This document shows positions 35,464 to 63,645 of a DNA stretch of 64,000 nt, piece after piece. Source of the DNA: Spirochaetota bacterium (GTDB taxonomy: Bacteria; Spirochaetota; Spirochaetia; Treponematales; UBA12059); the NCBI GenBank assembly GCA_029547205.1, contig JAKPPT010000092.1, positions 24,626-88,625 of the forward strand, given 5' to 3'. The translations under genes were made by a program, and so were the position numbers. The notes below the pieces were generated by a model. The model was not told the DNA's origin. It did no database searches and saw only the letters and a list, made by a program, of their open reading frames with translations. Position 1 is the stretch's first letter. Every line of letters begins with the position of its first letter.

Positions 35464-37398
35464 CTAGTTTTGCTCTAAAAAATGTTCACGGATAAAAGCA
35501 GCATATGCTGGCAACAACATAAGTTCTTCATGTGTACCAAAGCCGACTACCTTTCCTCTATCCAAGAACAGTATTTTGTCTACATACTGCAGCGTAGAGA
35601 GCCGGTGTGATACAATAATAAATGTCAGATTCTGTGCAAACGCATTGAGTTCATTCATGAGACGCTCTTCGTTTGCTGCATCAAGACTCGCTGTAATATC
35701 ATCAAAAACCATAAGCTCTGGTTTCCTGGCTATTGCGCGAGCTATAGCCATCCGCTGTTTTTGTCCACCAGAAAGACTTAAGCCTCGCTGTCCCACAACG
35801 GTAAGTTCTCTATCGGTAAAGTTAGCGACTTCATCGCTCATCTGGGATATACGTAAGGCTTGATTGAATACCGTGTCGTTCGGTTCATCAATAAAAAAAT
35901 CTATATTTTCCTTAAGCGTTCCAGAAAACAAAAGAGCTTCCTGCGGGACATACCCTATTTTTTTTGCATATGTTTCTGTATCGATTGCATCTAGCGGTAC
36001 GCCATTTATTTTTACCATACCTGAATCTGGAGGCAGCAAGCCGAGCAATACTTTAATGAGCGTCGATTTACCTGAGCCTACTGGACCAATAACCCCAAGT
36101 CGTTCACCCTTTGTTACTCTAAAACTTACCCCATCGAGCGCTTTTTCTACACGCCCCGGATAAGTGAACGATACTTCATTAAAATCGATTGTAGCTATAT
36201 CTATTGCTATTGTTTTCTCCTGAGGTGCGATACCTGGCACCGATACTCCGCCCTGCACCTGGATACCTGGCACCGGAACACTGCCCTCTAGCGGTACGTT
36301 GCCCTGCACCTGGATACCTGGCACCGATACGCCGCCCTGCACATGGATACCTGGCACCGGGTCCTTTTCCGAAGCGCTTTTTCCTGGTACCGGAAAGCTC
36401 GCCATCTCTTCCAGCCTATCAATATTTACAAAAGCTTTTTTGCCATATACGAAGAGCTGTGGTATATCCAGAATTGGATAAATGAGCATCATGAGGTATG
36501 TATAGAACGCATAAAACGTTCCGATGCTTATTTTTCCTCTCACCGCCATTAAGCCGCCGGCAAATACAATACCTACTTGAGCAACGAGGTCAATGTACTG
36601 ATAGATAAGGTGCAGAATCACATCGAGTTTTGCTGCAGTCATTTCGGTTTTCCAGCGTTTTTGCAACACCTCATTAAAAAACCTTCGATATTTATCCTCG
36701 CAGGCATACGCTTTGATAATTCGCACACCCGAAAAGCTCATTTCAAGCTGTTCATTGACCTCACTCACAGCTTTTTCGTTTTTCCTGTAAACATCATATA
36801 CCTTATCAGATGTTACCCAGAAGACTGCCAGCATGAGCGGCAAGGGAATGAGCGAAAAAAGCGTCAGCTTTGGACTAATGAGCATCATTGCAATGAGACA
36901 AAACAGCACTTTACTGATTGATTCCACTGCGCGAAAAATTCCTGAACACAAAAACCACGACAGCTTTGGAAAATCATAGAGATCGCTCGTCAGCCGTGTA
37001 ACAATATCACCCGTAGCAAATTCTGAAAAAAACTTATAATTCTTTTCAAGAATTTTCTTAAAAAATTTCATTCGGAGCAAATGTTCAAAAACAGAGTTTG
37101 TCATGCCACGTATTGCAGGAAAAAATGAGGCAATAAAACCACCAAATCCCACTGCAATTAAAAGCATTAAGAGTCTATCTATTTCCAACATCGGGTCGGT
37201 TGTGCCAGGATGCTCCAAAAGCCGTTGGATAGTATCAAGCAACAATTTAGAAATATATGGAAGCAACACCGCCACCGCACTCGAAATTAATGTGAGTACA
37301 AATAATAGTGCTACAAGTCCTTTTTTCTCACTCCAGAGTTTTCTAATCCAGGCAATATGATTAATGTTCAGCTGTTTGTAGTGTATTGTATCTGACAT
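35464..37398 (-). CDS. ABC exporter, fused permease/ATPase (MsbA-type), with repeat-derived linker insert
   Basis: Six-TM domain, then GPVGSGKST, LSGGQKQR and LMVFDD. ATG 37398 is preceded by GGAGGAGGAG. The linker carries VPGIHVQGGVSVPGIQVQG... repeats. Confidence 0.9.
   Translation of the reverse strand: MSDTIHYKQLNINHIAWIRKLWSEKKGLVALLFVLTLISSAVAVLLPYISKLLLDTIQRLLEHPGTTDPMLEIDRLLMLLIAVGFGGFIASFFPAIRGMTNSVFEHLLRMKFFKKILEKNYKFFSEFATGDIVTRLTSDLYDFPKLSWFLCSGIFRAVESISKVLFCLIAMMLISPKLTLFSLIPLPLMLAVFWVTSDKVYDVYRKNEKAVSEVNEQLEMSFSGVRIIKAYACEDKYRRFFNEVLQKRWKTEMTAAKLDVILHLIYQYIDLVAQVGIVFAGGLMAVRGKISIGTFYAFYTYLMMLIYPILDIPQLFVYGKKAFVNIDRLEEMASFPVPGKSASEKDPVPGIHVQGGVSVPGIQVQGNVPLEGSVPVPGIQVQGGVSVPGIAPQEKTIAIDIATIDFNEVSFTYPGRVEKALDGVSFRVTKGERLGVIGPVGSGKSTLIKVLLGLLPPDSGMVKINGVPLDAIDTETYAKKIGYVPQEALLFSGTLKENIDFFIDEPNDTVFNQALRISQMSDEVANFTDRELTVVGQRGLSLSGGQKQRMAIARAIARKPELMVFDDITASLDAANEERLMNELNAFAQNLTFIIVSHRLSTLQYVDKILFLDRGKVVGFGTHEELMLLPAYAAFIREHFLEQN
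36229..36393. repeat. In-CDS copies of GATACCTGGCACC (4 exact, 1 degenerate)
   Basis: Copies start at 36229, 36262, 36313 and 36346. Spacings are 33, 51 and 33 nt, all multiples of 3. Confidence 0.9.
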
Positions 37399-37421
37399 AG
37401 TCTCCTCCTCCCCTATAAAGC

Positions 37422-39215
37422 TCACGTTGCCTCATCAAGTTCTGCATCTGCAGAAAGATCAGGGAATTGCAGACGGACCAGTTCTTCATACTCAGAATAC
37501 TCTGCAAGCAACTCATGATGCTTTCCTCGTGCTGCTATTCTGCCATTTTTGAAAAAAAGAATTTCATCAGCAGTAAGTATTGAAGAAAGCCTGTGCGCCA
37601 CAATGATAGCCGTTCTACCTTTAAGAAGATCTTTCATGCTCCGTTGAATTTTCTTTTCTGTAACTACATCAACACTTGCGGTTGCTTCATCCATAATGAT
37701 AATATCCGCATTAAAAACAACCGCTCGTGCAAATGAAATGAGCTGCTTTTCACCCATCGATAGATTGCCACCTCGTTCTGCAAGTTCAGTGTACGCACCA
37801 TGAGGTAGCCGCCGAACAAAATCATCAGCATGAACCGTTTCCAATGCTTTGAAAACATCGAGTTCGGTAAACTTATCATTATATACGCGTACATTTTCAA
37901 GGACTGTCCCCGGGAATAAATATATATCCTGCAACACAAGTCCAATATGTTTCCGCCATTCATGTAAATCAAGTGATTCCAATCGTACGCCATCAACAAG
38001 AATCTCACCACTCGTATATGGGTAAAACCTGCAGAGGAGGCTTACAGTTGTTGTTTTACCGGAACCAGAAGGACCAACAAGTGCAATGGTCTGTCCCTTT
38101 TTTACAGTAAATGAGACATGATCAAGCACCGGTTCGCCTTCTTTATAAGCAAAGGAAACATCACGGAACTCAATTGCATGCTTAAATTCAGGTTTGTTTG
38201 TAGGCGTTGCCACTGCTTCTTCAGGTTCAAGGCTCATAATCGAAAAAATACGTTCCATTGCAACGCGAGCCTGCTGAATACTCCGTACATTTTCCCCAAT
38301 TGCAAACAAAGGTTCAAACAACCGCATCCCATATTCAATGAAAACCAAGAGTGTCCCTACGGTTAAAACTCCTTTAAAGATTTGCGGCGCTGTTAATTTA
38401 ATGATGAGTGTAAGAAACAGCGGCCCAGCTAAAAATTGCAGCCCGCCCATAAAGATATACTCGATAAGACCAGCCCGAATCTCGATATCACGTTTTTCTT
38501 TACTTACTTTTTCTAGCTTGGAAACAGCCTTCTCTGTTTTTTTAAACACCTGGAGAACTTCTATACCCTGCACAAACTCTGTCACCACAGCACACACTTC
38601 TGCATACTTTTTTCTCGCTTTTTCATAAAGTGGCCTCAATTTATCAAAAACAAGTAAAAATGCAGCGAGTAAAAACGGTATCGGAATAAAAATAATGCCA
38701 GCAAGTTTTGCATCAATAGTAATGAAAACAATAAACATTCCAATAAAATAGATAATATTGGTGATGAGCATGATTGCAGTTTCGCTAAAAAGCTGTTTAA
38801 CCCGCTCAGTATCATTTTCCACACGAGCCATAAGCTCGCCAACCTGATGCTTATCAAAATATGCAACAGGTAGAGTAACCATGTGTGCAAACAGATCTGA
38901 TTTTATATTTGTCACAACATTTAGTCCCAGACGAACCATAAGCATGCTTTCGAAGTATGTGATAACACCCATAAAAATCACGAGAGCAAAATAGAGAAAC
39001 GCATACTGCAGCATGAGACTAACATCTTTTTGTGGAATAGCCTTATCGATAATTGCCCGGAGAATGAGCGGACCTGCCAGTCTAGAAGCAGTCACCGCCA
39101 GGAGTGCTAGCAAACCCAGAGCAAACAGAAACCAATACGGCTTGAAATATGAAAAAAATCGCTTGAACACCAGCCTCTTGCTGATATTTGTGTTTTGAAC
39201 TTGTGCTTCTGACAT
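37422..39215 (-). CDS. ABC exporter, fused permease/ATPase (MsbA-type)
   Basis: GPSGSGKTT, LSMGEKQL and IIIMDEATA. I prefer ATG 39215 (MSEAQVQNT, preceded by GGAGA). The track's N-terminal 59 aa are read through repeat DNA. Confidence 0.85.
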   Translation of the reverse strand: MSEAQVQNTNISKRLVFKRFFSYFKPYWFLFALGLLALLAVTASRLAGPLILRAIIDKAIPQKDVSLMLQYAFLYFALVIFMGVITYFESMLMVRLGLNVVTNIKSDLFAHMVTLPVAYFDKHQVGELMARVENDTERVKQLFSETAIMLITNIIYFIGMFIVFITIDAKLAGIIFIPIPFLLAAFLLVFDKLRPLYEKARKKYAEVCAVVTEFVQGIEVLQVFKKTEKAVSKLEKVSKEKRDIEIRAGLIEYIFMGGLQFLAGPLFLTLIIKLTAPQIFKGVLTVGTLLVFIEYGMRLFEPLFAIGENVRSIQQARVAMERIFSIMSLEPEEAVATPTNKPEFKHAIEFRDVSFAYKEGEPVLDHVSFTVKKGQTIALVGPSGSGKTTTVSLLCRFYPYTSGEILVDGVRLESLDLHEWRKHIGLVLQDIYLFPGTVLENVRVYNDKFTELDVFKALETVHADDFVRRLPHGAYTELAERGGNLSMGEKQLISFARAVVFNADIIIMDEATASVDVVTEKKIQRSMKDLLKGRTAIIVAHRLSSILTADEILFFKNGRIAARGKHHELLAEYSEYEELVRLQFPDLSADAELDEAT

Positions 39216-39392
39216 ATCTTGTCTCCAAACCTGCATACGATGCGGCACAATGCGGTAATCGGCATATCTTGTCTCCAAACCTGCATACGATGCGGCACAA
39301 TGCGGTAATCGGTACCAGGTATCCAATGCATGCTGTAATTCTGTACCAGGTATTGTGCAGTACCAGGTGCCAGGTTTTCTTAAATCTAGCAT
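39213..39392. repeat. 50-bp tandem duplication (x2) followed by four degenerate core-motif copies
   Basis: Unit catatcttgtctccaaacctgcatacgatgcggcacaatgcggtaatcgg at 39213-39262 and 39263-39312. It is followed by GGTACCAGGTATC, TGTACCAGGTATT and AGTACCAGGTGCCAGGTTTTC. Confidence 0.85.
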
Positions 39393-42631: not shown

Positions 42632-44086
42632 ATGAATAACGATCAGCAACAAAACATTTCTACTCCAAGTCAAACTATACTCAAACACAACAAATTCTGG
42701 CTTACAGTAGAAGGCGCTGCATCATCTGTATATCTCATTTTAACACAGGGTGCTCTTTTTACTGCTATTGCGATCTATTTCAAACTTACGACATTCTGGC
42801 TTTCTGTTACCACTGCATTTCCACTTGTGTTCCAGGTATTCCAGCTTATTGCTCCAACCATTATTAAACGGTCAAAAAACAGAGTAAGGCTGATGATTAT
42901 TTTCAATGCTGGCCGATTCATCTGGTTTATTCCGCTTGCAACTTCGCTCTTTGGCTTTTCATCTGCCTTAGAATTCATTGTGATTTTTGCAGTGAGCCAG
43001 CTCGCAAACGCTCTTGCTGGCAATGTGTGGGTGGGATTAAGCCGGGACCTCATTCCAGAACACGAACGCGGAAAATTTCTTGGGAGAAGAAATGTTGCAA
43101 TCAGCATTACCACAATGATTTCGACATATATCTATACTGCTATTCTCGATATACTCAGCAAACCTTTATCCATCATTATAACTATACTCATTGGCATGAT
43201 TGCTACAATCATTTCAATCATTGCCACGTTCCCAATTCGAGATATCAGTCTCCAGGAAATCAGCCAACAAAGCACAGGAAACCTGGCACCAGGAACAACA
43301 TTCGAAGAAAAATCGGCTGGAAACCTGGCACCAGGAACAAATAAACAAAAAACAGATTCTATAAAATCAAACTTGGTTTATTTATTTAGCTACAACAAGC
43401 AGTTGCTCCAGGATAGCAACATCAAACGATTTGTAATTGCAATGTTCGCGTGGAACTTTATTCTTCAACTAACTGCTCCGTTTTTTGCATATCACCAGAT
43501 CACCAATCTTTCTATGTCGATGCGATTGATCGGAATTACTTCCATCCTTACGAGTCTTCTTTCCATAATTTTTTACAGGATTTGGGGTGTTTTAGGTGAT
43601 AAACTTGGCCATAAATCAGTATTGGTGACAGGTATCAATATCGTTAGCCTTATCCCTATGCTATGGTTCTTTATGGGAAAACCGCTTTGGCCATACATGA
43701 TGGGTGTTGATGTACTCTTAACCGGACTTGGATGGTCAGCTATCGATCTTGGCATTTTAACCTTTGGAATGGAAATCGGTGGTAAAAACTCCAGTGCATG
43801 CTTTGCTCTCGCTAATGCAGGAGCGGGCATCAGCGGACTCGCTGGAGCTGTAGTAGGAGGCTTCCTGGGACAAAAACTTAAGCCAATAAACCTGACACTC
43901 TGGTCTTTCGAAATCAATGGTCTTCAATTTTTATTTCTTGTTGGTGGACTTTTACGGTTTTTAGGTCTTGCTCTCTTCAAAAAAGTACAGGCAGCTAACT
44001 ATGCAAAACCAGGTGTCATGGTTACGAATGTGCTTTCAATTATTGCACGACGCTTTGCAATCCGTCCCGCTGAACTTGATGAGTAA
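42632..44086 (+). CDS. MFS transporter with repeat-derived central-loop insert
   Basis: 484 aa with multiple TM helices. The central loop contains GNLAPGT twice. Confidence 0.7.
   Translation: MNNDQQQNISTPSQTILKHNKFWLTVEGAASSVYLILTQGALFTAIAIYFKLTTFWLSVTTAFPLVFQVFQLIAPTIIKRSKNRVRLMIIFNAGRFIWFIPLATSLFGFSSALEFIVIFAVSQLANALAGNVWVGLSRDLIPEHERGKFLGRRNVAISITTMISTYIYTAILDILSKPLSIIITILIGMIATIISIIATFPIRDISLQEISQQSTGNLAPGTTFEEKSAGNLAPGTNKQKTDSIKSNLVYLFSYNKQLLQDSNIKRFVIAMFAWNFILQLTAPFFAYHQITNLSMSMRLIGITSILTSLLSIIFYRIWGVLGDKLGHKSVLVTGINIVSLIPMLWFFMGKPLWPYMMGVDVLLTGLGWSAIDLGILTFGMEIGGKNSSACFALANAGAGISGLAGAVVGGFLGQKLKPINLTLWSFEINGLQFLFLVGGLLRFLGLALFKKVQAANYAKPGVMVTNVLSIIARRFAIRPAELDE
43277..43340. repeat. 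Two in-CDS copies of GGAAACCTGGCACCAGGAACAA
   Basis: Identical 22-mers at 43277 and 43319, 42 nt apart. They contain the perfect palindrome CCTGGCACCAGG. Confidence 0.9.
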
Positions 44087-48715: not shown

Positions 48716-49452
48716 GAAACCTGCTCCTTATCATCCACAAGTTCCAAAAATAGATTTTCAAGTGACGTATCTTTTCCTTTAAGTTCACGAAGCTCATCAA
48801 GCGAACCGGTGAATAGTATCTTCCCCTTATTGATAATAGCAAGCTTATCGCATACCCGCTCTGCAACCTCCATTACATGCGTCGAAAAGAAAACACACTT
48901 ACCGGCATTAGCACGTTCCCGCATGAGCTCTTTGAGCTTAAATGCCGCATGCGGATCAAGCCCAACCATCGGTTCATCGAGAAGCCAATTTTGCGGATCT
49001 GGAAGCAAACTTCCCGCAATAATAAGCTTTTGCTTCATACCGCGAGAATAACTTGCTATTTTAGCATTGAGCACATCTGCAATTTCGAATATCGTCGTGT
49101 ACCGTTCTATCGCAGCATACCTGGCACCTTTGCCTAAATCATAAACATCTGCGATAAAATTGAGATATTCAATACCTTTTAACCGGCTAAACAACTCAGG
49201 ATTATCTGGTACAAACCCTATAGCATGTTTCGCCTTCAAATCATCGGAGATGGTAGAATGACCATTGACAAGAACCGTACCCTCATCCGCTTGCAGCGAG
49301 CCGGTTATTAATTTAAGCGTTGTTGTTTTTCCAGCTCCATTTGGCCCCAAAAAACCAAAAATACAGCCATCAGGTACTGTAAGGCTAATAGCATCAAGCG
49401 CTTTTGTTTTTGCTCGGTTATACGTCTTGCTCACCGCATTAATCTCAATCAT
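48712..49452 (-). CDS. ABC transporter ATP-binding protein
   Basis: GPNGAGKTT, YSRGMKQKL and WLLDEP. Confidence 0.9.
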   Translation of the reverse strand: MIEINAVSKTYNRAKTKALDAISLTVPDGCIFGFLGPNGAGKTTTLKLITGSLQADEGTVLVNGHSTISDDLKAKHAIGFVPDNPELFSRLKGIEYLNFIADVYDLGKGARYAAIERYTTIFEIADVLNAKIASYSRGMKQKLIIAGSLLPDPQNWLLDEPMVGLDPHAAFKLKELMRERANAGKCVFFSTHVMEVAERVCDKLAIINKGKILFTGSLDELRELKGKDTSLENLFLELVDDKEQVS

Positions 49453-49476: not shown

Positions 49477-49727
49477 GAAACCTGGCACCGCAATCTATCG
49501 ATACCTGGCACTGCAAAGTTCAAATCAGTCCAAAGGGAACCCTGACACCGCTTGCACAGCCAGAACGCGCCCGCTGACTGAAACATGGGGAAACCTGGCA
49601 CCGCAGACACTTTCCGCAGGCACTTTAGGAAACCAAGGGCTCGCTTTTGATACCTGGCACCTAACTGGCTAATGGCTCATGGCTTGTTATACCTGGCACC
49701 TAACTGGCTACTGGCTCATGGCTTGTT
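49477..49727. repeat. Intergenic repeat cluster A (~6 copies, CCTGGCACC orientation)
   Basis: GAAACCTGGCACCGC appears twice and GATACCTGGCACTGC once. A 39-bp unit, ATACCTGGCACCTAACTGGCTA(A/C)TGGCTCATGGCTTGTT, appears twice. Confidence 0.9.
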
Positions 49728-50700: not shown

Positions 50701-52563
50701 TTATTCCTCCGTCAATCGAGTTCCCCTGAATACCTTTTCAACTATTTGCGCAGGACTTTCAGTTGTACCAGAATCTTCTATCTCATGAGATTCTTGACTA
50801 TGCTCGGTTGAATTTTGCACAACATATGCATGTATTTGAATAACTCGATTAAACACTTTTTGTAAAATAGGATTGATTACCGAACTTTCTGCATTAATTT
50901 TATCTGCCTCAAAATTTGAAACACAGGATACTTCTAACCTGTCACCCTTTATCGACCAATCTTCTGTTCTGGAAAGAATCGCATTAAGCATCAAATTTTG
51001 CTTACCCAGTGCAGTAATTACCCTCTCCTTTTCAGCTATTGCAGTATCAGTAGCAGAATCTGACTGTTCAGAAATATAACCACTGGAATCTACACTTTTG
51101 CCGCGAGAAACCGCGATTGAAACTGCGCCGATGCCTGGTTTAACTGCACTGGTGCCAGGTTTCCCATCACCGATGCCAGGTTTAGTTGCGCTAGCAGTGC
51201 TAACTGTACTGGTACCAGGTTTTGAATCGACTGCTGATGCACCTCGGCTACTACCCACCATGTTGGCCTCGCTGGCCAGTTCAACGGTGCCAGGTTTAGT
51301 TGCGCTGGAAACTGCGCTGGTGCCAGGTTTCCCATCAGGTTTATTTGATTTATCCACTGAAGAAGCTTGAGAACTCAATGAGATTAGTTTTTCTGCAATT
51401 CCACTTGCGTTTTGAGTATTCCCTTCACTAAGAGCATGTTTCAAATTGGTTAAGATTTCAAAAATCTCAGAACGTGAAATAAGCGCTCGTATTTCACAGA
51501 GCATTACCAATGCAAGTTCTATTTCATATCGGGGGTTAACGCTGTACCGCATGTTTCTATAGATATCAAGAAGCACAGCAAGCATCCGTTCCAGGTGTCG
51601 TGTTTCGAGCGCTGACACTTGTTCCGGCACTGATTCTTTTGAAAACCCTAAAAGTTCCTGTTTCTCGACACCAGCTTTTATAAAAAGGAGCGTACGAACA
51701 TATTGAATAGTATCAACTAAGAGCTGCTCAATTGAAACACCTGAAGATACAATTGATTCAACAAGTTCGATTGTTTTAGCCTTATCTCCTTGTGCTACCG
51801 TGCTTATCAGCATACCAATTCGTTCAGAACCGACAATACCTAGTTTATCCTGAATTACCGACAGCCTGATATGTCCCTCAGAAAATGAAGCCACTTGATC
51901 AAACATGGTATACGCATCGCGGAGAGAACCAGTTGCCTCTCGCGCTATCCACATGAGCGCATCATCATCAGCCACAATACCTAAATCCTGCGCTGCCGAT
52001 GCAAGCCTTTCCTTAATAACAGCAAGCGGAATCAATCTAAAAACAAATTGCTGACACCGGCTGCGGATGGTAGCTGGTACCTTATGCAGTTCAGTCGTTG
52101 CAAATATAAAAACAATATATGGCGGAGGTTCTTCGATAGTTTTCAACAGTGCATTAAAGGCACTGTTAGAGAGCATGTGTACTTCATCAATAATGTAGAT
52201 TTTATATTTAGAGAAGTTAGGCGGGAAAAGCACCTCATCTTTAATTTGACGTACATTATCAACTGACGTGTTGGACGCACCATCAATTTCAATAACATCC
52301 AATGACGCACCTTTGGTGATAGCATGACACGAATTGCATACCCCGCATGGTTCTGCGGTTGGCCCTCGTTCACAATTGAGAGATTTTGCAAGTATTCGTG
52401 CTGTACTTGTTTTACCGCAACCTCGAGGACCAGAGAAAAGATATGCATGCGCTATCCTTCCCGATTCTATTGAAGCCTTGAGCGTAATCGAAACAAAATC
52501 CTGTCCCGCCAGCTCATCAAAATTCTGAGGCCGCTTGCGGTTTGCTGTCACTTCATACGCCAT
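50701..52563 (-). CDS. dnaX: DNA polymerase III subunit gamma/tau, with repeat-derived insert
   Basis: GPRGCGKTS, zinc module CERGPTAEPCGVCNSC, and DEVHML. The variable region carries KPGT repeats. Confidence 0.93.
   Translation of the reverse strand: MAYEVTANRKRPQNFDELAGQDFVSITLKASIESGRIAHAYLFSGPRGCGKTSTARILAKSLNCERGPTAEPCGVCNSCHAITKGASLDVIEIDGASNTSVDNVRQIKDEVLFPPNFSKYKIYIIDEVHMLSNSAFNALLKTIEEPPPYIVFIFATTELHKVPATIRSRCQQFVFRLIPLAVIKERLASAAQDLGIVADDDALMWIAREATGSLRDAYTMFDQVASFSEGHIRLSVIQDKLGIVGSERIGMLISTVAQGDKAKTIELVESIVSSGVSIEQLLVDTIQYVRTLLFIKAGVEKQELLGFSKESVPEQVSALETRHLERMLAVLLDIYRNMRYSVNPRYEIELALVMLCEIRALISRSEIFEILTNLKHALSEGNTQNASGIAEKLISLSSQASSVDKSNKPDGKPGTSAVSSATKPGTVELASEANMVGSSRGASAVDSKPGTSTVSTASATKPGIGDGKPGTSAVKPGIGAVSIAVSRGKSVDSSGYISEQSDSATDTAIAEKERVITALGKQNLMLNAILSRTEDWSIKGDRLEVSCVSNFEADKINAESSVINPILQKVFNRVIQIHAYVVQNSTEHSQESHEIEDSGTTESPAQIVEKVFRGTRLTEE
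51130..51331. repeat. Six in-CDS motif copies inside dnaX
   Basis: GATGCCTGGTTTA 51130, GGTGCCAGGTTTC 51151, GATGCCAGGTTTA 51172, GGTACCAGGTTTT 51211, GGTGCCAGGTTTA 51286, GGTGCCAGGTTTC 51319. Confidence 0.9.
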
Positions 52564-52579
52564 GCGTTTAGCATATCAT

Positions 52580-53070
52580 GGTGCCAGGTTTATAGTAAAC
52601 TAGGCAACAGGTTATTGTTATTTTTGTTTTTTTGGTACCAGGTATCAGATTTTGTTTGCTGCGCCAAGCCATTGGCGAAAACCTTCGGTGCCAGGAAAAC
52701 CTTCGGTGCCAGGTATCTAATAGCTGAATGTTTCATGAAAACCATTGGTGCCAGGTAATACATGGCCAAGTCTTTGAGAAGATTTTAGGTGTCAAGTTTC
52801 CCTAGCATATAGGTTTATGATAACATTTTCCCAGCATGCAAATGCACATGGCCAAGTATGCGGTGCCAGGTTTCTGATAGTTAAGTATACGGTGCCAGGT
52901 TTCTGATAGCTACCAGGTTTCTGATAGCTATAGCTAAGTATAGCTAAGTATGCGGTGCCAGGTTTCTGATAGCTAAAATATTGGATTTATGACACGTTTT
53001 ATTGACTACACGTAATCCGACAAGCAGTCCGGTGCCAGGTATCTCTAGATACGGTGCCAGGTATCTCTAG
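52580..53070. repeat. Intergenic repeat cluster B (~12 copies, GGTGCCAGG orientation)
   Basis: Begins 17 nt upstream of the dnaX ATG. Includes local tandems such as CGGTGCCAGGTTTCTGATAGCTA and CGGTGCCAGGTATCTCTAGATA (x2). Confidence 0.9.
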
Positions 53071-53159
53071 ATATAACCTCTATCTATGTAGCAATAATAT
53101 GGCAATACGAGAAGAACAGACAATTAAACGGGGAAAATTACAAATTAGCTATTAACCGT

Positions 53160-53292
53160 GTGGGTTCCTGCAACCATAAGGTCAGGCTTGGCATGGCACA
53201 AGATCATTCTGCTTACCGTTGCTTCCTTCCGGACCTGGCGGGGTTAGGCAGCGAACCTTTGCATGGAGCCTGACCATATTGTTGCAGGAAAA
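53160..53292 (-). ncRNA. ffs: Signal recognition particle RNA (small/4.5S type)
   Basis: The minus strand reads ...CCAGGUCCGGAAGGAAGCAACGGUAAGCAG..., matching the conserved domain IV core. The flanking arms UUCCUGCAAC..GGUCAGGCU and AGCCUGACC..GUUGCAGGAA pair into one long hairpin. Classic position upstream of dnaX. Confidence 0.8.
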
Positions 53293-53360
53293 TAGTACCG
53301 CCCATTTTGATATTAGTAGTCTTGCTATCAGTTATTAGCGGCTATTGATATTTTAAAATA

Positions 53361-53448
53361 CGGAGAGAGAGGGATTTGAACCCTCGGTGCCCTTTAGGAG
53401 CACACACGACTTCCAATCGTGCACCTTCGGCCGCTCGGTCATCTCTCC
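53361..53448 (-). tRNA. tRNA-Ser (anticodon GGA)
   Basis: Minus strand: GGAGAGA acceptor stem, anticodon stem CACGA/TCGTG with loop TTGGAAG, long variable arm, and T-arm GGTTCAAATCC. CCA is not encoded. Confidence 0.88.
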
Positions 53449-53630
53449 AAAATCAGTCTTGATAATAACAAAGCAAGCCACTTTTGGCAAGCCAATGAGC
53501 ATTAAAACAAGCCATTAGATCAAAAAAGCGTGAATCTTACCGAAGTTGAAACAATATCTAAAATTTACTAAAGATTTTGGTCATTGAAATGACCACTCAT
53601 AAAAGGTTTTAATGCAAAGATAAAAGATAA

Positions 53631-54173
53631 TTATGTTGCAATAACTGAACTAAAGTCATAGTTTTCTTGAGAAAATTTTTCATATAGATTTTTAATTTCA
53701 TCGCTTATCCAATTTAAAAATATTTTAAAGCCCTTTTTAAAAAATAACAAACCACTCCAAAACCACTCGTCTGGCCTTTTTACCATTTTTGCTTTCACAG
53801 GATTTAAAATTATATATTTCAAAACACGTTCTACATCCTGTATTCTCATCAACGGCTCTGAAAAATATCTACCAGCCCAAAAATGTCCTACTAAATCGTT
53901 AATTGCATTAAATTTCTTTGCAAACGTTACTAAAAGCCTTTGCATTATCTTAGGAAGCTCCTTACAATCCCTTGGTTTAATAAGCAGATGAATATGATTA
54001 TCCATTAAAGTAAAACCTTCTACATTAAACTGATACTCTTTTTGCAACTTTTTTAATATTTTCATAAACATCTTTTTTAGACCAGAACGTTGCAGAAAGT
54101 AAGTTTGATAATTCGTTCGCGCTGTAATATGATACGTTGCCCCTGGAATTAGCAATCTCGGTTTTCTTGGCAT
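53631..54173 (-). CDS. rayT: REP-associated tyrosine transposase (RAYT; IS200/IS605-like Y1 HUH family)
   Basis: 180 aa. YHITARTN, HUH motif DNHIHLLIKP, GHFWAGRYFSEP, and the catalytic-Tyr motif KYIILNPVKAKMV. Single gene with no IS ends or tnpB. Visibly more AT-rich than its neighbours. Confidence 0.8.
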   Translation of the reverse strand: MPRKPRLLIPGATYHITARTNYQTYFLQRSGLKKMFMKILKKLQKEYQFNVEGFTLMDNHIHLLIKPRDCKELPKIMQRLLVTFAKKFNAINDLVGHFWAGRYFSEPLMRIQDVERVLKYIILNPVKAKMVKRPDEWFWSGLLFFKKGFKIFLNWISDEIKNLYEKFSQENYDFSSVIAT

Positions 54174-54307
54174 TTTGATTCCTCCTAATTAAAGGTAAAA
54201 ATATTAAGTTTTCTCCTACTTTAATTGATTAAATTTAAGTGATTAAACAATCACATCTAAATATACTTGCTGGCAAACTCTCTTGCATGCAGAGAAATCC
54301 ATGCAGT

Positions 54308-54469
54308 GAAACCTGACACCATAAATCCAGAAACCTGACACCATAATTTTTTAAGTTCTAGTTTTGGTGGCAGGTTTCTAATTTTCTACAAGAAGTGCGC
54401 TTATTGGTGCTTGTGAAGCATTTAGCTGTGATTCGTACCATGTTTCCATGTTTCTCGGTGCCAGGTTTC
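54308..54469. repeat. Repeat cluster C upstream of RAYT (2 copies in each orientation)
   Basis: GAAACCTGACACC at 54308 and 54330. GGTGGCAGGTTTC at 54366 and GGTGCCAGGTTTC at 54457. Confidence 0.85.
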
Positions 54470-55762: not shown

Positions 55763-55915
55763 GGTGCCAGGTATCAGGTATATCAAATATTGTCAGGTAT
55801 CAGGTATTTCAAATATTGTTATGTAATGATGTATTGTTGAGCAGCCAGCGAGTGCCAGGAATATTACCAAACTTATTTCCAGACTTATTTCAGCGGTGCC
55901 AGGTTTCGCCCCTGG
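55763..55915. repeat. Intergenic repeat cluster D
   Basis: CGGTGCCAGGTATCAGGTAT, GTCAGGTATCAGGTAT, GAGTGCCAGGAAT, and CGGTGCCAGGTTTCGCCCCTGG at 55894-55915. Confidence 0.85.
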
Positions 55916-57797: not shown

Positions 57798-59221
57798 AAT
57801 TAGCAACTCACTAGCGCCTCGCAGAAACCAAAACCTGGCACCTTTCTCCCCATTCTCTCAGATCCAACGAAACATGGCACCCTTTGGCCCTCCGCAACCG
57901 GGGACCCTTTATTGAGAAACCTGACACCGTTCTCCCCATTCTCTCAGACCCAACGAAACATGGCACCGTTCTCGCAGACCTCGCCGAAGAGCTGCGCCTA
58001 TCAAACCGAAACCTGGCACCATTCCCGCAAACCTAAAACCTGGAACCTGGAAACCTGGCACCGATCTCGCAGTTCTCAAAACCTGGAAACCTGGCACCGT
58101 TCTCGCAAACCTAAAACCTGGAACCTGGAAACCTGGCACCGATCTCGCAGTCCTCGCCGAAGAGCTGCGCCCATCAAACCGAAACCTGGCACCGTTCTCG
58201 CAGACCTCGCCTGGAAACCTGGCACCTTTCTCCCCATTCTCTCAGACCCAACGAAACCTGACACCTTTCTCGCAGTCCTCGCCGATTAAGAGCCGCGCCC
58301 ATCAAACCGAAACCTGAGGAAACCAACCTGGAAACCTGGCGCCCTTTATTGGGAAACCTGGCACCGTTCTCGTAGTCCCGATTCGAAACCTGGCACCCTT
58401 TGGCCCTCTGCAAATTAGCAACTCACTAGCGCCTCGCAGAAACCAAAACCTGGAAACCTGGAACCAAATGAAACATGGAAAGCAACCTGGAACCCGGAAA
58501 CCTGGAAACCAACCTGGAACCCGGAAACCTGGCACCAAATACTTTGAGACGCCCACCGCAACATGGGACCCCTTATTGAGAAACCTGGCACCTTTCTCCC
58601 CGTTCTCTCAGACCCAACGAAACCTGGCACCCTTTGGCCCTCTGCAACCTGGGACCCGGAAACCTGGAAACCTGGCGCCCTTTATTGGGAAACCTGGCAC
58701 CGTTCTCGTAGTCCCGATTCGAAACCTGGCACCATTCCCGCAGACATCGCCGATTAAGAGCTGCGCCCATCAAACCGAAACCTGGCACCCTTTGGCCCTC
58801 CGCAACCTGGCGCCCTTTATTGAGAAACCTGGCACCGTTCTCGCAGACATCGCCGATTAAGAGCTGCGCCTATCAAACCGAAACCTGACACCATGGCACT
58901 TGATTTCTTTCAAACCGAAACCTGGCACCGTTCTCGCAGTCCCGATTCGAAAACCTGGCACCGTTCTCGCAGTCCCGATTCGAAAACCTGGCACCGTTCT
59001 CGCAGTCCTCGCCGAAGAGCTGCACCCATCAAACCGAAACATGGAACCTGGCACCCTTTGGCCCTCCGCAACCTGGGACCCCTTATTGAGAAACCTGGCA
59101 CCGTTCTCGCAGTCCCGATTCGAAACCTGACACCATGGCACTTGATTTCTTTCAAACCGAAACCTGGCACCACGGCACTTCAGGCACTTATTTCTTAAGG
59201 CACCATGGCACTTGATTTCTT
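57798..59221. repeat. ~1.4 kb single-orientation array of GAAACCTGGCACC modules (about 30-35 copies by hand count)
   Basis: Every module starts with the core and carries one of about four tail types. Includes a 33-bp tandem (x3) at ~58915-59013. A higher-order repeat, AAATTAGCAACTCACTAGCGCCTCGCAGAAACCAAAACCTGG, occurs at 57798 and 58413. Confidence 0.95.
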
Positions 59222-61162: not shown

Positions 61163-61580
61163 GGTGCCAGGTTTCAAAATAGCCATTTGGTGCCAGGTTT
61201 CGTTCCAAGTGCAGATATAGAGAAAAACCGGTGCCAGGTATCGCTATAAATCCCAAAGTCTGTGACAAGCAAGAAGGCCGGTGCCAGGTTTCCCATTTGT
61301 GTCATTTGGAGGTGCCAGGTATCCCCACTGGTACCCTACAGCTTCAACAAAAGTTAGCAATGGAGCGATTGGTGCCAGGTATCCCCACTGGTACCCCACA
61401 GCTTCAACAAAAGTTAGCAATGGAGCGATTGGTGCCAGGTATCAGTATGGGATTGGTGCCAGGTATCGCTATACCAGGTTTCCCATTTGTGTCATTTGGA
61501 GGTGCCAGGTATCCCCACTGGTGCCCCACAGCTTCAACAAAAGTTAGCAATGGAGCGATTGGTGCCAGGTATCAGTATGG
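61163..61580. repeat. Intergenic repeat cluster F (~11 copies, GGTGCCAGG orientation) with 60-bp tandem units
   Basis: The 60-bp unit GGTGCCAGGTATCCCCACTGGTACCC(T/C)ACAGCTTCAACAAAAGTTAGCAATGGAGCGATT occurs at 61311, 61371 and 61501. Confidence 0.92.
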
Positions 61581-61625
61581 AGCGGCCTATTTACAAAATA
61601 CCGTAATACTGTACAATGAAGATTA

Positions 61626-62798
61626 ATGAAATTTGCCTCAAGAATATTGCACCCTGCGGTATATATTTGCTGGTTTCTGGTTTTAGTTTTCTCAGCTTGC
61701 AAACAAGCAGAAACCACCACAAAACCTCCGAATCCTCATGAATCGGTCAAATTTTCTGTGACACTATCAAAAACAGAACCTGAAATTGTCTATTTTGATG
61801 CAGACAGGCCACTCAACGAAGCTTTTTCTCTTACGAAACCTGGCACCAAAGCGTTATTACCTTATCCACTCCAAAAGCGGCCTGCGCTTTTTGTTCCGTT
61901 GGACAAATCCTCAATACTTCTCTTAGTTAACAAAGTAGGCTTTGTTCAACTCACTTTTACAGCAAACGCAGATGTATCTACAACGATACAATTTGATTCT
62001 CCAGTCTCTGTTGAAGGTGTACCAGTAAACCAGTACTCTGCAGGTTCAGTTTGGCAAACGAATAATCACCAATATCTACTATTGTATAAAGATCATGTAC
62101 TCGACACTGACTGGGCAGCAACAGTTTTATTTGAATTTTCTGGTGACACTGTCTCACGGATAGAAATCCCACCACATCCTGAAAATAAACGCTATGAACC
62201 GTACTGGATTTTCCCAACAAGCGAAAACACCTGGCTTATCCAATATCGTTACATAATTGGAGACCGATCGTATACAACATATGCTTCATGGGACCGTAAA
62301 CACAATAAACTTTCGGAGCTCACACGCACCTCTTTTGAACGCCAACTCACTCCAATCACCTTTGAAAAAGCTCCTGCACCCATTCGTCTCATAGCTGAAC
62401 ATATATCAGAACCCGTTCTATTAGAGTACCGTGATAGCAATGGAGCCATTCATTATATCAATAACAAAAATCTCGATGATGCTGTTCTTGGCATCGCAGA
62501 AACCAACAATTACGGCACTTTTGTCCTTCTGGAAGATGGCCGATACTGGATCGCTCGGGGACAGGTACCACCATCAGTTTCTTCATCTGAAAATCAAACA
62601 ATCACTCCGAAACAACAGCAATCAGCAATATCCTTTTCAGGAACACCACCAGTGACTATAGGGCAGGCTACTGTACCTGTTGATGATGTTCATTTTAGAA
62701 ATGCAATATTGACTGATACCGTGTTTATCAGCACCTGGGAAGAAAATGGTTTTCCAGAGACGGGAATGAGCGGTCTCTTTCTTTTTCAGCTTCCGTAA
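61626..62798 (+). CDS. Hypothetical lipoprotein
   Basis: 390 aa with a lipobox-like LVFSAC. Contains one exact motif copy at 61835-61847, read as KPGT. Confidence 0.55.
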   Translation: MKFASRILHPAVYICWFLVLVFSACKQAETTTKPPNPHESVKFSVTLSKTEPEIVYFDADRPLNEAFSLTKPGTKALLPYPLQKRPALFVPLDKSSILLLVNKVGFVQLTFTANADVSTTIQFDSPVSVEGVPVNQYSAGSVWQTNNHQYLLLYKDHVLDTDWAATVLFEFSGDTVSRIEIPPHPENKRYEPYWIFPTSENTWLIQYRYIIGDRSYTTYASWDRKHNKLSELTRTSFERQLTPITFEKAPAPIRLIAEHISEPVLLEYRDSNGAIHYINNKNLDDAVLGIAETNNYGTFVLLEDGRYWIARGQVPPSVSSSENQTITPKQQQSAISFSGTPPVTIGQATVPVDDVHFRNAILTDTVFISTWEENGFPETGMSGLFLFQLP

Positions 62799-62868: not shown

Positions 62869-63645
62869 ATGAAATATCGGTGCCAGGTATCAAAAAAGGT
62901 TTTCCGTTTATCAAAACATGCAATCAAAAAATATTTGTGCATCCTTGCTATTTTTTTAACATCGTATTCCGTTTTTGCCTTTGATATTACTCATGCAGGC
63001 GGATCACTCGGTGTGCTCATCATCAATAATACGGTTCCCGAATCAGCACCGAACCCGGTTGTAAATACCATTGGTGGATTTGCCAATTTTACATTTACTT
63101 CGGTGCCAGGTTTCGCCCCTGGTTCTTCGGTGCCAGGTTTCGCCCCTGGTTTTTTCCTCTCAACAGCTCTCGACATACTCTGGCTCAATTATGAAAACCG
63201 AGACGGTATTGCTGTGCCTACAGAAACAGAAACTGGTAACGGCAATAACGTTTTTGTTATCGGTTTACTGCTCGATGTACCGTTAGGATATGTATTTTAT
63301 TTTGGACCGCCTGTTACCGAATCATTACCGCATCGATTTTCAGCTACCTTACTTGCAGGCACATCTTTTTTATTTCGTATCTGCATGAATGGTGATACAA
63401 CCGAAGCTTATGCAAGCGTGATGGAACAAAACCGCATTGCTGTTGCCCAGTACCTCTGGGGGAATGGTAGGTGGTTTTATCCAATGATAAGCGGGAAATT
63501 CGGTATTGTGCTTCAAGAAACGTTTACATTCACAGTAGGCGCAAAGTGGTACATCCCCATATTCAATCTTTGGACAACCGATGATAATTCATTTTTCAAT
63601 GCAAGTATGCTGGCAATTCAGCTTGCAATGCAAATTTCCCTGTAA
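62869..63645 (+). CDS. Hypothetical exported/OM protein with repeat-derived segments
   Basis: 258 aa with a hydrophobic N-terminus. Motif copies at codons 3-8 (YRCQVS) and in SVPGFAPGSSVPGFAPG. Confidence 0.5.
   Translation: MKYRCQVSKKVFRLSKHAIKKYLCILAIFLTSYSVFAFDITHAGGSLGVLIINNTVPESAPNPVVNTIGGFANFTFTSVPGFAPGSSVPGFAPGFFLSTALDILWLNYENRDGIAVPTETETGNGNNVFVIGLLLDVPLGYVFYFGPPVTESLPHRFSATLLAGTSFLFRICMNGDTTEAYASVMEQNRIAVAQYLWGNGRWFYPMISGKFGIVLQETFTFTVGAKWYIPIFNLWTTDDNSFFNASMLAIQLAMQISL
63099..63149. repeat. Two in-CDS copies of TTCGGTGCCAGGTTTCGCCCCTGG
   Basis: Copies at 63099-63122 and 63126-63149, 27 nt apart. Their 22-mer core is identical to the intergenic copy at 55894-55915. Confidence 0.9.

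Follow-up and report, generated by a model that had tools for sequence, protein, structure and literature searches.

A window of 64,000 nucleotides, by which we mean the whole stretch of DNA analysed here, carries a gene for a RAYT-superfamily enzyme of the TIRYT clade inside a zone about 30 kb long that is crowded with copies of a 13-nucleotide motif. Judged by its sequence, this 13-mer is the lineage's own version of GGGGTCAGGTCTT, a conserved end core found beside such genes in different phyla, and for this reason the RAYT probably seeds the repeats. The explanation that we favour, and which as a whole we consider fairly probable, is that the RAYT is the cognate single-stranded DNA (ssDNA) enzyme of the 13-mer and the driver of a locally amplified repeat family. 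The gene and its immediate setting comprise the following features:

53631 to 54173, minus strand: gene for a Y1 HUH tyrosine nuclease/transposase of the RAYT/TIRYT clade, 180 amino acids, ATG start.
54181 to 54186, minus strand: ribosome-binding site AGGAGG, 7 nucleotides 5' of the ATG, from direct reading of the sequence.
53360 to 53449, minus strand: tRNA-Ser(gga), adjoining the RAYT gene.
53177 to 53275, minus strand: SRP RNA (ffs), identified by Rfam, beside tRNA-Ser.

The protein contains the HUH motif DNHIHLLI (H60/H62) and the Tyr motif KYIILNPVKAKMV (Y120), and all three residues occupy invariant columns in a family alignment of 41 sequences. Y1_Tnp (PF01797; 59.6 bits, E = 4e-16) is its sole Pfam domain. 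The NCBIfam model REP_Tyr_transpos (NF047646) is matched with 87 bits against a cutoff of 80, and the IS200 model with 29.8 bits, under its cutoff of 55. The AlphaFold model (pLDDT 87.8) has E. coli TnpA_REP (4ER8) as its top PDB match, with TM scores of 0.73/0.79, and scores 0.45–0.49 against the TnpA proteins of IS608 and ISDra2. The initial annotation, which had named the ORF a RAYT-type HUH/Tyr transposase and proposed its placement by HMM, is thus borne out by profile models, invariant residues and a TnpA_REP-like fold. Since NF047646 also accepts HTH-bearing TIRYT-type relatives, which it scores at 74–97 bits, the model cannot tell the sub-kinds apart. Most of the nearest relatives are 265–320 amino acids long with HTH_23-, HTH_28- or DnaA_C-like tails, and nearly all relatives with flanking ends possess an HTH. 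The window protein stops at residue 180; the C-terminal HTH (Bac_DnaA_C, HTH_23, HTH_28) is absent, and the family alignment places the missing tail at 100–150 residues. The ORF at 53631–54173 on the minus strand therefore encodes a RAYT-superfamily Y1 HUH enzyme of the TIRYT clade (TnpA_Y1 subclass 2.1-like) without the usual HTH. As had been noticed from the letters, the gene is richer in AT than its neighbours, with a GC content of 31% vs 36–44% in the adjoining genes.

Throughout the annotated 15–74 kb stretch, tnpB and IS-type inverted ends are absent, as is any further transposase, integrase or RT domain, in agreement with the initial annotation on the first two points, and Rfam finds nothing in the window beyond the tRNA and the SRP RNA. 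One copy of the RAYT gene is present within about 74 kb of contiguous sequence, and the identical protein always occurs in one and the same synteny (22 contigs read). A syntenic orthologue is found in the sister species with a dN/dS of 0.12 at a dS of 1.15, values like those of the adjoining genes. Comparison of the orthologues shows vertical inheritance under purifying selection, and we regard the gene as a domesticated, single-copy, vertically inherited ssDNA nuclease/transposase that is presumably catalytic. The sister gene carries a premature stop, a TGA in place of the invariant R102, despite which the sister species retains many copies of the 13-mer.

The 13-mer GGTGCCAGGTWTC occurs 79 times in the 64-kb window at no more than one mismatch, vs 0.06 occurrences expected, and its consensus in the window is GGTG(C/T)CAGGT(A/T)TC. 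Its distribution is local: 85% of 80 copies lie no more than 10 kb from the RAYT gene, a span that makes up 27% of the 73.6 kb examined, while the first 36 kb hold only two copies and the 10 kb past the window end only one. The gene's central position among the clusters is modestly unusual, falling in the top 5–8% of positions in the 73.6 kb. With 32 copies on the plus and 47 on the minus strand there is no replication-strand bias. The 13-mer core alone is the conserved part of the repeats. Spacers are private to each cluster, those of the array in the ABC exporter gene described below recur nowhere else in the sequence examined, and accordingly no unit has been seen moving between places. When the 79 copies were folded as ssDNA with 22-nucleotide flanks, the mean z-score was +0.37 and 1% fell below −2, compared with z = −3.5 for a REP control in the same test. 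Base counts around the core revealed no GTAG/CGTC tag. The 13-mer repeats are not REPs: they have neither a palindrome or hairpin excess nor the tag, and the initial likening of them to REPs needs to be changed. The hairpin GGTGCCAGGTATCCCCACTGGTACC, put forward as an assay substrate, is specific to one cluster at 61.3 kb and does not characterise the family.

The copies closest to the gene are these:

54308 to 54342, minus strand: two GGTGTCAGGTTTC copies, at 54308 and 54330, on the gene's sense strand, 135 and 157 bp 5' of the ATG.
54366 to 54469, plus strand: two copies of opposite orientation, GGTGGCAGGTTTC at 54366 and GGTGCCAGGTTTC at 54457.
54329 to 54379, no strand assigned: inverted doublet of two copies with 18-nucleotide arms, 89% complementary, and a 15-nucleotide spacer.
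52580 to 53065, plus strand: 8-copy cluster on the strand expected of a downstream end, with tRNA-Ser and ffs intervening.

Both the four upstream copies, two in each orientation, and the lack of any copy in the immediate 3' flank are precisely as first described; the stretch 53065–54308 has none, including the 182 bp 3' of the gene. The broader claim that repeats flank the gene holds for its upstream side; there is no bracketing, and downstream two RNA genes come before the first copies. The copies at 54308 and 54330 point the same way as the upstream end repeat of relatives, and the orientation of the upstream copies differs in the sister species. The inverted doublet folds as an ssDNA hairpin (−14.6 kcal/mol, z = −4.1) and is REPIN-like.

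Further clusters, several of them inside genes, occur at the following places:

57830 to 59171, minus strand: 1.3-kb array of about 31–35 same-orientation copies, 50–57% GC.
61163 to 61573, plus strand: 10-copy cluster with a 60-bp local unit.
55763 to 55907, plus strand: two copies in the interval between an OMP-like gene and an MCP gene.
49477 to 49700, minus strand: 5-copy cluster in the interval between recR and an ABC ATPase gene, with a 39-bp local unit.
51151 to 51331, plus strand: in-frame copies in the dnaX linker, read KPGT, with a 21-bp unit polymorphic among strains.
36229 to 36358, minus strand: four in-frame copies in the TMD-NBD linker of an ABC exporter, read VPGI.
43278 to 43332, minus strand: two in-frame copies in an MFS transporter gene, read NLAPGT.
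63102 to 63141, plus strand: two in-frame copies in ORF 62869–63645, read VPGFAPG.
39311 to 39378, plus strand: two copies that precede the first ABC exporter gene or fall at its 5' end.

In the 1.3-kb array the copies are separated by at least six reshuffled spacer modules, and the intergenic space that holds it measures 489–1661 bp across assemblies. An isolated sixth copy stands at 49116, outside the cluster at 49477–49700. The ORFs at 57912–58289, 58468–58860 and 61231–61626, considered as evidence that the arrays code for protein, have no Pfam matches and were rejected as composition artefacts. Copies within genes use three reading frames and both orientations relative to transcription, and the in-frame arrays have a period of 33–51 bp. 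All of the polymorphisms seen at strain level are gains or losses of whole units between direct repeats within arrays. An indel in L004 turned out to be a run of 100 N, a scaffold gap, and was discarded together with a 100-bp gap in L006 that looks alike. The ABC exporter provides a case of growth: its array is found neither in the sister species nor in any other orthologue, one strain variant has five units, and where the window species has four units the sister linker has one native CGGTGCCAGGT, which codes for PVPG. Comparison of the two linkers shows an array gained at a pre-existing GGTGCCAGGT site that is still single in the sister species. The place syntenic to 39311–39378 has no copy in the sister at up to one mismatch.

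The core itself has diverged between the two species. GGTG-C-CAGGT is found in 62 of 71 copies in the window species and GGTG-A-CAGGT in 20 of 29 in the sister, whose core variant reads GGTGACAGGTATC and which also contains GGGGACAG and GGGGACAGGTATC variants. Positionally orthologous copies show the same C/A difference, such that KPGT in DnaX becomes KPVT. These counts show each species to have its own dominant core variant, a pattern indicative of concerted evolution.

A pairing of gene and motif is apparent among 80 metagenomic relatives of 30–39% identity, of which 72 loci could be tested upstream and 59 downstream. The exact window 13-mer stands beside none of the 80, and the related core GGGGTCAGGTCTT emerged only from a de novo inverted-repeat search. 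Allowing up to two mismatches, this core lies on the sense strand in 54 of the 72 loci, at a median distance of 53.5 bp 5' of the ATG, and is found inverted downstream in 35 of the 59; it agrees with the window core at 9–10 of 13 positions. A motif-only genome scan identified the exact GGTGCCAGGTATC bracketing a RAYT-family gene, in inverted arrangement, in L042, L058 and L080, which represent three unrelated phyla and whose GGTGCCAGGTATC ends carry species-specific extensions. The nearest tree neighbour of the window protein, L143, has ends that read GGTGCCAGTGACC. In a rough NJ tree the window protein does not group with L042, L058 and L080, so that close protein kinship is no explanation for the sharing of the exact core. 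P0003 and P0005, the closest short relatives, have no flanking motif. Next to proteins that are only 20–39% identical, the end core has been kept in phyla from Spirochaetota to Elusimicrobia and Proteobacteria, and conservation over such a range suggests a constrained recognition mode. Heptad arrays of the form (GGTNTCA)n are present in more than a dozen phyla, and most of the 8-kb loci retrieved with them contain no RAYT gene. By motif comparison, GGGGTCAGGTCTT is the "GGGGWSAS" end motif of TIRYTs and TIRtrons.

The RAYT is the candidate agent, and the annotation of the 15–74 kb stretch contains no competing gene of recombinase type. The enzyme would cut and rejoin ssDNA at the cores, in the manner of other Y1 enzymes at their own sites, with a preference for cores close to its own gene, and core-plus-spacer units would be added where a core already exists or where a core-like site happens to occur. 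Slippage and unequal recombination among the cores could later grow, shrink and reshuffle the arrays, and the end state would be a core-saturated neighbourhood of about 30 kb in which protein linkers, too, tolerate in-frame arrays. We infer the binding, the chemistry of core cleavage, the action in cis and the making of the first duplication by the enzyme rather than by slippage. The original proposal that this gene mobilises the 13-mers stands in so far as the enzyme is a credible agent and the core is paired with RAYT genes in relatives; mobilisation itself we infer. Counting against a role for the RAYT are the missing HTH, the unbracketed gene and the upstream copies at −135/−157 instead of about −54, as well as the sister's copies alongside a stopped RAYT, the motif-less P0003 and P0005, strain polymorphisms that slippage alone explains, the cluster-private spacers, the modest centrality and the lack of strand bias.

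An extended form of this explanation, which we put forward as possible but rather unlikely, holds that the HTH-less TIRYT acts essentially in cis, that GGTGCCAGGT-like sites within about 15 kb of its gene nucleate arrays and that heptad arrays are products of the same family. If true, TIRYTs would be general 'array writers' and not transposases, and the enzyme would build kilobase arrays and give essential proteins and transporters low-complexity linkers (VPGI, KPGT, NLAPGT).

The most serious competitor, in our judgement an unlikely one, has the 13-mer as the binding or structural site of some other host factor, its arrays growing by slippage and unequal recombination only, and the RAYT as a bystander, a decayed TIRtron whose end happened to be co-opted or amplified. 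Slippage alone suffices for the strain polymorphisms, since every one of them adds or removes a unit between direct repeats, and the cluster-private spacers are what local tandem duplication predicts; it is nevertheless unable to start a duplication at a single-copy proto-site or to bring in new spacer DNA. The richness in copies of a sister species with a nonsense-mutated RAYT, and the arrays of similar heptad units in many phyla with mostly no RAYT in the 8-kb loci, would fit a bystander, but the core keeps a fixed distance to RAYT-family genes in different phyla. A regulatory site, moreover, is a poor fit to copies in three reading frames and both orientations within genes, and neither a candidate binding protein nor another recombinase is annotated nearby.

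Less probable still is the reading in which the RAYT is an inactive TIRYT remnant that lost its HTH and the repeats are fossils of an ancestral full-length enzyme, now drifting and slipping. A protein of 180 residues beside relatives of 265–320 with HTH tails invites this interpretation; its confident, full RAYT-like fold, however, matches the 165-residue E. coli TnpA_REP, which likewise has no HTH. The stop codon already present in the sister orthologue has to be set against a dN/dS of 0.12 across a dS of about 1.15, and the missing adjacent downstream end and an AT-rich composition atypical of the region against a full set of intact catalytic residues and a strong ribosome-binding site. New clusters and the species-specific dominant core arose after the split from the sister, which also argues against fossils. 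The remaining reading, an autonomous insertion sequence of the IS200/IS605 type or a mobile element recently acquired by horizontal transfer beside a tRNA gene, is effectively refuted, for although the Y1_Tnp domain, the low GC content and the adjoining tRNA-Ser would suit it, the IS200 model gives 29.8 bits against a cutoff of 55, no tnpB or subterminal hairpin ends surround the gene, the context is one and the same on all 22 contigs read and syntenic in a species at dS ~1, and the gene lies 5' of the tRNA, not at its 3' end.

Other candidates for the repeats were rejected. The reverse complement contains CTGGCAC as in sigma-54 promoters; the −12 TTGC is misplaced in most copies and the conservation is on the wrong side. 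A CRISPR-like array or CsrA-type sponge RNA was discarded in view of the 13-nucleotide repeat, spacers that recur within the array, the absence of GGA and Rfam matches to tRNA and SRP RNA only, and a phage association in view of one match in 2.9 million viral contigs. Literature searches on the motif strings and on heptanucleotide repeats returned nothing relevant.

TIRYTs, or RAYT subclass 2.1, are widespread and essentially unstudied, and the literature searched contained no biochemical characterisation of any of them. At this locus a minimal member, consisting of the catalytic domain only, occurs together with a well-defined and very short candidate site, and there are natural comparisons in the nonsense-mutated sister gene, the filled array vs the single 'empty' proto-site and the unit gains at strain level; the action of a TIRYT on DNA thereby becomes testable with a 13-nucleotide oligonucleotide. 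The in-frame arrays also show how protein linkers could be reshaped by a domesticated nuclease. Intragenic REPs are known (PMC3733652), and like these and the Rickettsia palindromic elements the window arrays are short in-frame repeats tolerated in conserved genes, replication genes included. Unlike in either of these, their unit is a 13-nucleotide non-palindromic core, arranged in arrays and read in three frames (VPGI/F, KPGT, NLAPGT).

With the IS200/IS605 TnpA proteins (IS608, ISDra2) the enzyme shares the Y1 HUH core, and growth at a pre-existing core-like site recalls the insertion of these elements beside a short target resembling their end cleavage site; the gene differs in having no tnpB, hairpin ends or multiple copies, a score below the family cutoff and a TM of about 0.47. 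The resemblance to classical REP/RAYT and REPIN systems (PMC2817692, Nunvar 2010; PMC3116915, Bertels & Rainey 2011; PMC3479197 for 4ER8) is closer, and comprises a vertically inherited gene under housekeeping-like purifying selection with one copy seen in about 74 kb, a 4ER8-type fold of similar size, an abundant repeat in the flank, one inverted doublet upstream and a species-specific dominant repeat sequence. Classical REPs are, by contrast, imperfect palindromes of 20–40 nucleotides that form hairpins and bear a GTAG/CGTC tag, both lacking in the window repeats, and they lie inverted and abundant on both sides of the gene, where the window gene has them upstream only. Instead of inverted pairs or BIMEs, the window copies are mostly same-orientation arrays with heterogeneous spacers; their distribution is local as far as visible, not genome-wide, and a core of their type is conserved across phyla whereas classical REPs are species-specific.

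TIRYTs and TIRtrons consist of a RAYT-like Y1 gene and non-palindromic flanking repeats with a GGGGWSAS-type core, which in some genomes form families in dimers or clusters (Di Nocera 2013, PMC3733652); they are also classed as TnpA_Y1 subclass 2.1 (Quentin 2018, PMC6006769). The flank of the window gene likewise has non-palindromic repeats, with a core, GGTGYCAG, that differs from GGGGWSAS at one or two of eight positions, and the nearest homologues of the protein are long HTH proteins. The window protein departs from this pattern in having no HTH and the gene in having no end repeat directly downstream; in TIRtrons the upstream end lies about 45–60 bp from the ATG and inverted ends bracket the gene, and the window gene has neither. 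Its repeats share only a 13-nucleotide core, as opposed to an end repeat of 20–40 nucleotides, and are far denser (79 per 64 kb), concentrated around the gene and expanded into a 1.3-kb array and intragenic in-frame arrays. The system nonetheless belongs with TIRYT/TIRtron, or TnpA_Y1 subclass 2.1, which it fits better than classical REP/RAYT, and represents a known kind in an unusual, locally hyper-amplified form.

The initial annotation placed a gene for an HUH/Y1 transposase here, and its open reading frame proves to be real: an ATG start with AGGAGG upstream is joined by matches to Pfam Y1_Tnp (E=4e-16) and to NCBIfam NF047646, 'REP-associated tyrosine transposase' (87 bits, cutoff 80). 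The IS200/IS605 NCBIfam model scores 29.8 bits, below its cutoff of 55. The proposed HUH motif and catalytic tyrosine correspond to H60, H62 and Y120, all invariant columns in the family alignment. In a sequence search for solved structures the sole relative was E. coli TnpA_REP (4ER8, E=3e-4), which is also the best structural match (TM 0.73/0.79) of an AlphaFold model of the protein (pLDDT 87.8, pTM 0.84); the TnpA proteins of IS608 and ISDra2 fit more poorly (TM ~0.47). The gene is indeed AT-rich (31% GC vs 36–44% in its neighbours), and the annotation between 15 and 74 kb includes no further transposase, integrase or reverse transcriptase. The gene and its RNA neighbours are:

53631-54173, minus strand, RAYT-type ORF, 180 aa, ATG start, AGGAGG 7 nt upstream
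53360-53449, minus strand, tRNA-Ser(gga)
53177-53275, minus strand, SRP RNA

The associated motif GGTGCCAGGTWTC occurs 79 times in the window at ≤1 mismatch, against 0.06 copies expected. The four copies noted earlier upstream of the gene were confirmed in position, and the 182 bp downstream are, as described, empty of the 13-mer. When all 79 copies are aligned, their common part is the 13-mer alone; spacers are private to each cluster and the local unit varies from 22 to 60 bp, cluster by cluster. Folded as single-stranded DNA with 22-nt flanks, the copies show no structure above that of shuffles (mean z +0.37; z < -2 in 1%), compared with z = -3.5 for a REP control, and the 13-mer repeats are therefore not REPs. 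The exception is an inverted doublet directly upstream of the gene (54329-54379; -14.6 kcal/mol, z = -4.1).

Counted in consecutive 4-kb bins of the window, copies number 0, 0, 1, 0, 0, 1, 0, 0, 0, 6, 3, 0, 9, 14, 31 and 14, and the 10 kb past its end hold one more. Among these 80 copies, spread over 73.6 kb, 59% are no more than 5 kb from the gene and 85% no more than 10 kb; their mean position is 54.15 kb and the midpoint of the gene 53.9 kb, a centrality equalled by just 5–8% of positions. Within the 73.6 kb examined, this clustering is suggestive of local action.

The exact 13-mer was found in none of the loci of 80 metagenomic relatives fetched by protein, but when their two gene flanks were searched de novo for sequences repeated in inverted orientation, a common end sequence emerged. 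At ≤2 mismatches GGGGTCAGGTCTT stands on the sense strand in 54 of 72 testable loci, a median of 53.5 bp upstream of the ATG, and inverted downstream in 35 of 59. This end is the 'GGGGWSAS' motif of TIRYT/TIRtron elements (Di Nocera et al. 2013; PMC3733652), which form TnpA_Y1 subclass 2.1, with HTH-bearing proteins and without detected REPs (Quentin et al. 2018; PMC6006769). The sequences to be compared are:

GGGGTCAGGTCTT, consensus of the relatives
GGTGTCAGGTTTC, two copies beside the window gene
GGTGCCAGGTATC, dominant window copy

Consensus and window copies agree at 9–10 of 13 positions, CAGGT being invariant, and L143, the nearest neighbour of the window protein in a rough NJ tree, has ends reading GGTGCCAGTGACC. 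On both grounds we regard the window 13-mer as the form that the enzyme family's conserved end core takes in this lineage. The present analysis documents conservation of a 13-nt core across phyla, extending the motif of 8 nt described in 2013. Most of the remaining homologues, all at ≤42% identity, are 250–320 aa long with a C-terminal HTH. The closest short, HTH-less homologues, P0003 and P0005 (189–195 aa; L219:1-110, L220:260-520), are encoded on contigs of high AT content; a Mg-chelatase/ComM-like gene and dprA lie downstream of P0005, and the gene following P0003 has no Pfam match on record. The end-type motif is absent from both loci, and the two may represent a distinct branch that lacks repeats and from which the AT-rich window gene took its composition.

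A search of 185,579 species genomes for pairs of 13-mers 9–39 nt apart returned at least 118 stretches in many phyla. Among the matches listed, three loci in unrelated lineages, an Enterobacterales MAG (L058; 71% GC), an Elusimicrobia MAG (L080) and an unclassified bacterium (L042), carry a RAYT-family gene bracketed by exact inverted GGTGCCAGGTATC with species-specific extensions. In the Enterobacterales MAG (CAZTOW01), 27-bp units (GGTGCCAGGTATCTTGATCMCCGGTCA) bracket the RAYT-like gene (L058:808-1865) and, inverted, a 430-bp segment of non-coding appearance on a second contig (L056:6168-6710), a MITE-like derivative.

Most of the stretches are heptad tandem arrays, (GGTGTCA/GGTTTCA/GGTATCA)n, from well over a dozen phyla at 30–71% GC (among L015-L132, for example L054:4009-4161, L032:319-450, L018:1667-1900 and L040:2881-2977). 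Among the matches listed, 178 of 218 spacings from one 13-mer to the next in other phyla are multiples of 7, compared with 8 of 40 in the window, whose arrays are not phased by 7. A RAYT gene is present in 3 of the 118 listed 8-kb loci, and 16 have a copy in the opposite orientation no more than 700 bp away; some arrays have an inverted partner after a short spacer, giving long foldback potential. Arrays of unrelated heptamers sometimes occur beside them (GCTGACC/GCTGACT at L054; TCAAGTA and TAACTAT at L047). Viral contigs contained essentially none in the scan. The arrays are reminiscent of cyanobacterial STRR repeats, and our literature search found no report of them.

In the window, in-frame copies within real genes use three different frames:

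VPGI, ABC exporter
KPGT, DnaX and a DUF8086 protein
NLAPGT, MFS transporter
VPGFAPG, ORF 62869-63645

The ABC exporter (35464-37425) offers a clean contrast between a filled array and a lone proto-site. It has 653 aa, compared with 594–596 aa in the sister species (GCA_964630305.1) and the next-closest orthologues and 586–606 aa in most others; the insert (36229-36358) adds 55 aa to the TMD-NBD linker as four units of 33–51 bp. In a strain variant (P0089) five units give 66 aa, the surplus residues coinciding exactly with motif units in both. Since the DNA of the sister has one native CGGTGCCAGGT coding PVPG at this spot (L223:10990-11100), the array grew at a chance proto-site once the two species had separated. 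The sister likewise has no 39.3-kb cluster. The first ABC exporter ORF (37422-39392; 656 aa) opens with a motif-derived stretch (MLDLRKPGTWYCTIPGT...); because its sister orthologue has 597 aa, the true start is probably downstream, with copies 39311 and 39366 in the 5' leader. The DnaX linker (51151-51331; dnaX 50701-52563) is ~39 aa longer than the sister's, from KPGT-bearing units. At the place of the 484-aa MFS transporter (42632-44086) no gene is called in the sister (L223:3706-5160), the gap holds two motif copies, and the gene is possibly inactivated there. A 131-aa ORF (61231-61626), called by some pipelines, lies wholly over the 61.2–61.6 kb repeat cluster, has no Pfam match and is unlikely to be a genuine gene.

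The largest array (57830-59171, minus strand; 1.3 kb) is mosaic: six or more spacer modules recur in shuffled order (e.g. GGTTTGATGGGCGCAGCTCTTCGGCGAGGACTGCGAGAAC, GAATCGGGACTGCGAGAAC, TCAATAAGGGGTCCCAGGTTGCGGAGGGCCAAAG), with partial CCAGGTT(T/C) runs between them. The MCP-STAS intergenic space that it occupies measures 1561 bp with 31–35 copies, compared with 508 bp and 5 copies in the sister; it spans 489–1661 bp across conspecific assemblies, a spread that assembly collapse may partly explain.

We favour, with moderate confidence, a domesticated TIRYT-clade RAYT with the 13-mer as its cognate site. Near its gene the enzyme would seed units of core plus spacer, both at cores and at sites resembling them, and slippage or recombination would afterwards reshape the arrays. 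Several reservations attach to this reading: the protein has no HTH, no bracketing end lies downstream, the upstream copies are at an atypical distance and their orientation is not conserved in the sister, no unit transfer between loci was seen, and the literature searched held no biochemistry of any TIRYT. Considerably less probable is a host-factor site enlarged by slippage, with the gene a bystander; polymorphisms between near-identical strains are solely unit gains or losses, such as a 21-bp in-frame dnaX deletion (L002; 613 vs 620 aa) or extra modules in the largest array.

It is unlikely that the gene is an inactive remnant and the repeats fossils. In the sister (~80–88% nucleotide identity) the gene occupies the same place (L011:10001-10543) with TGA instead of the invariant R102 and the frame otherwise intact, on five contigs from four independent samples; the gene there either became a pseudogene recently or has a stop that is read through. 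The dominant core is GGTG-C-CAGGT in the window (62 of 71 copies) and GGTG-A-CAGGT in the sister (20 of 29), a difference shared by positionally orthologous copies, even turning DnaX KPGT into KPVT; the copies evolve in concert at the DNA level. Species variants, post-split arrays and unit gains and losses among strains are evidence that the 13-mer family has been active in this lineage. An IS-like or recently acquired element is very improbable: the protein is identical on all 22 contigs read (anaerobic-digester metagenomes and Spirochaetia MAGs) with constant synteny, and a dN/dS of 0.12 at dS 1.15 against the sister, within the range of neighbouring genes, argues for an old, vertically inherited and constrained gene.

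RAYT-like genes with non-palindromic end families are an already known kind. The present system is a distinct variant of it: the protein consists of the catalytic domain alone, the copies share nothing but a 13-nt core, their density is extreme and, it appears, local, mosaic arrays reach kilobase size, and conserved genes contain arrays in frame.
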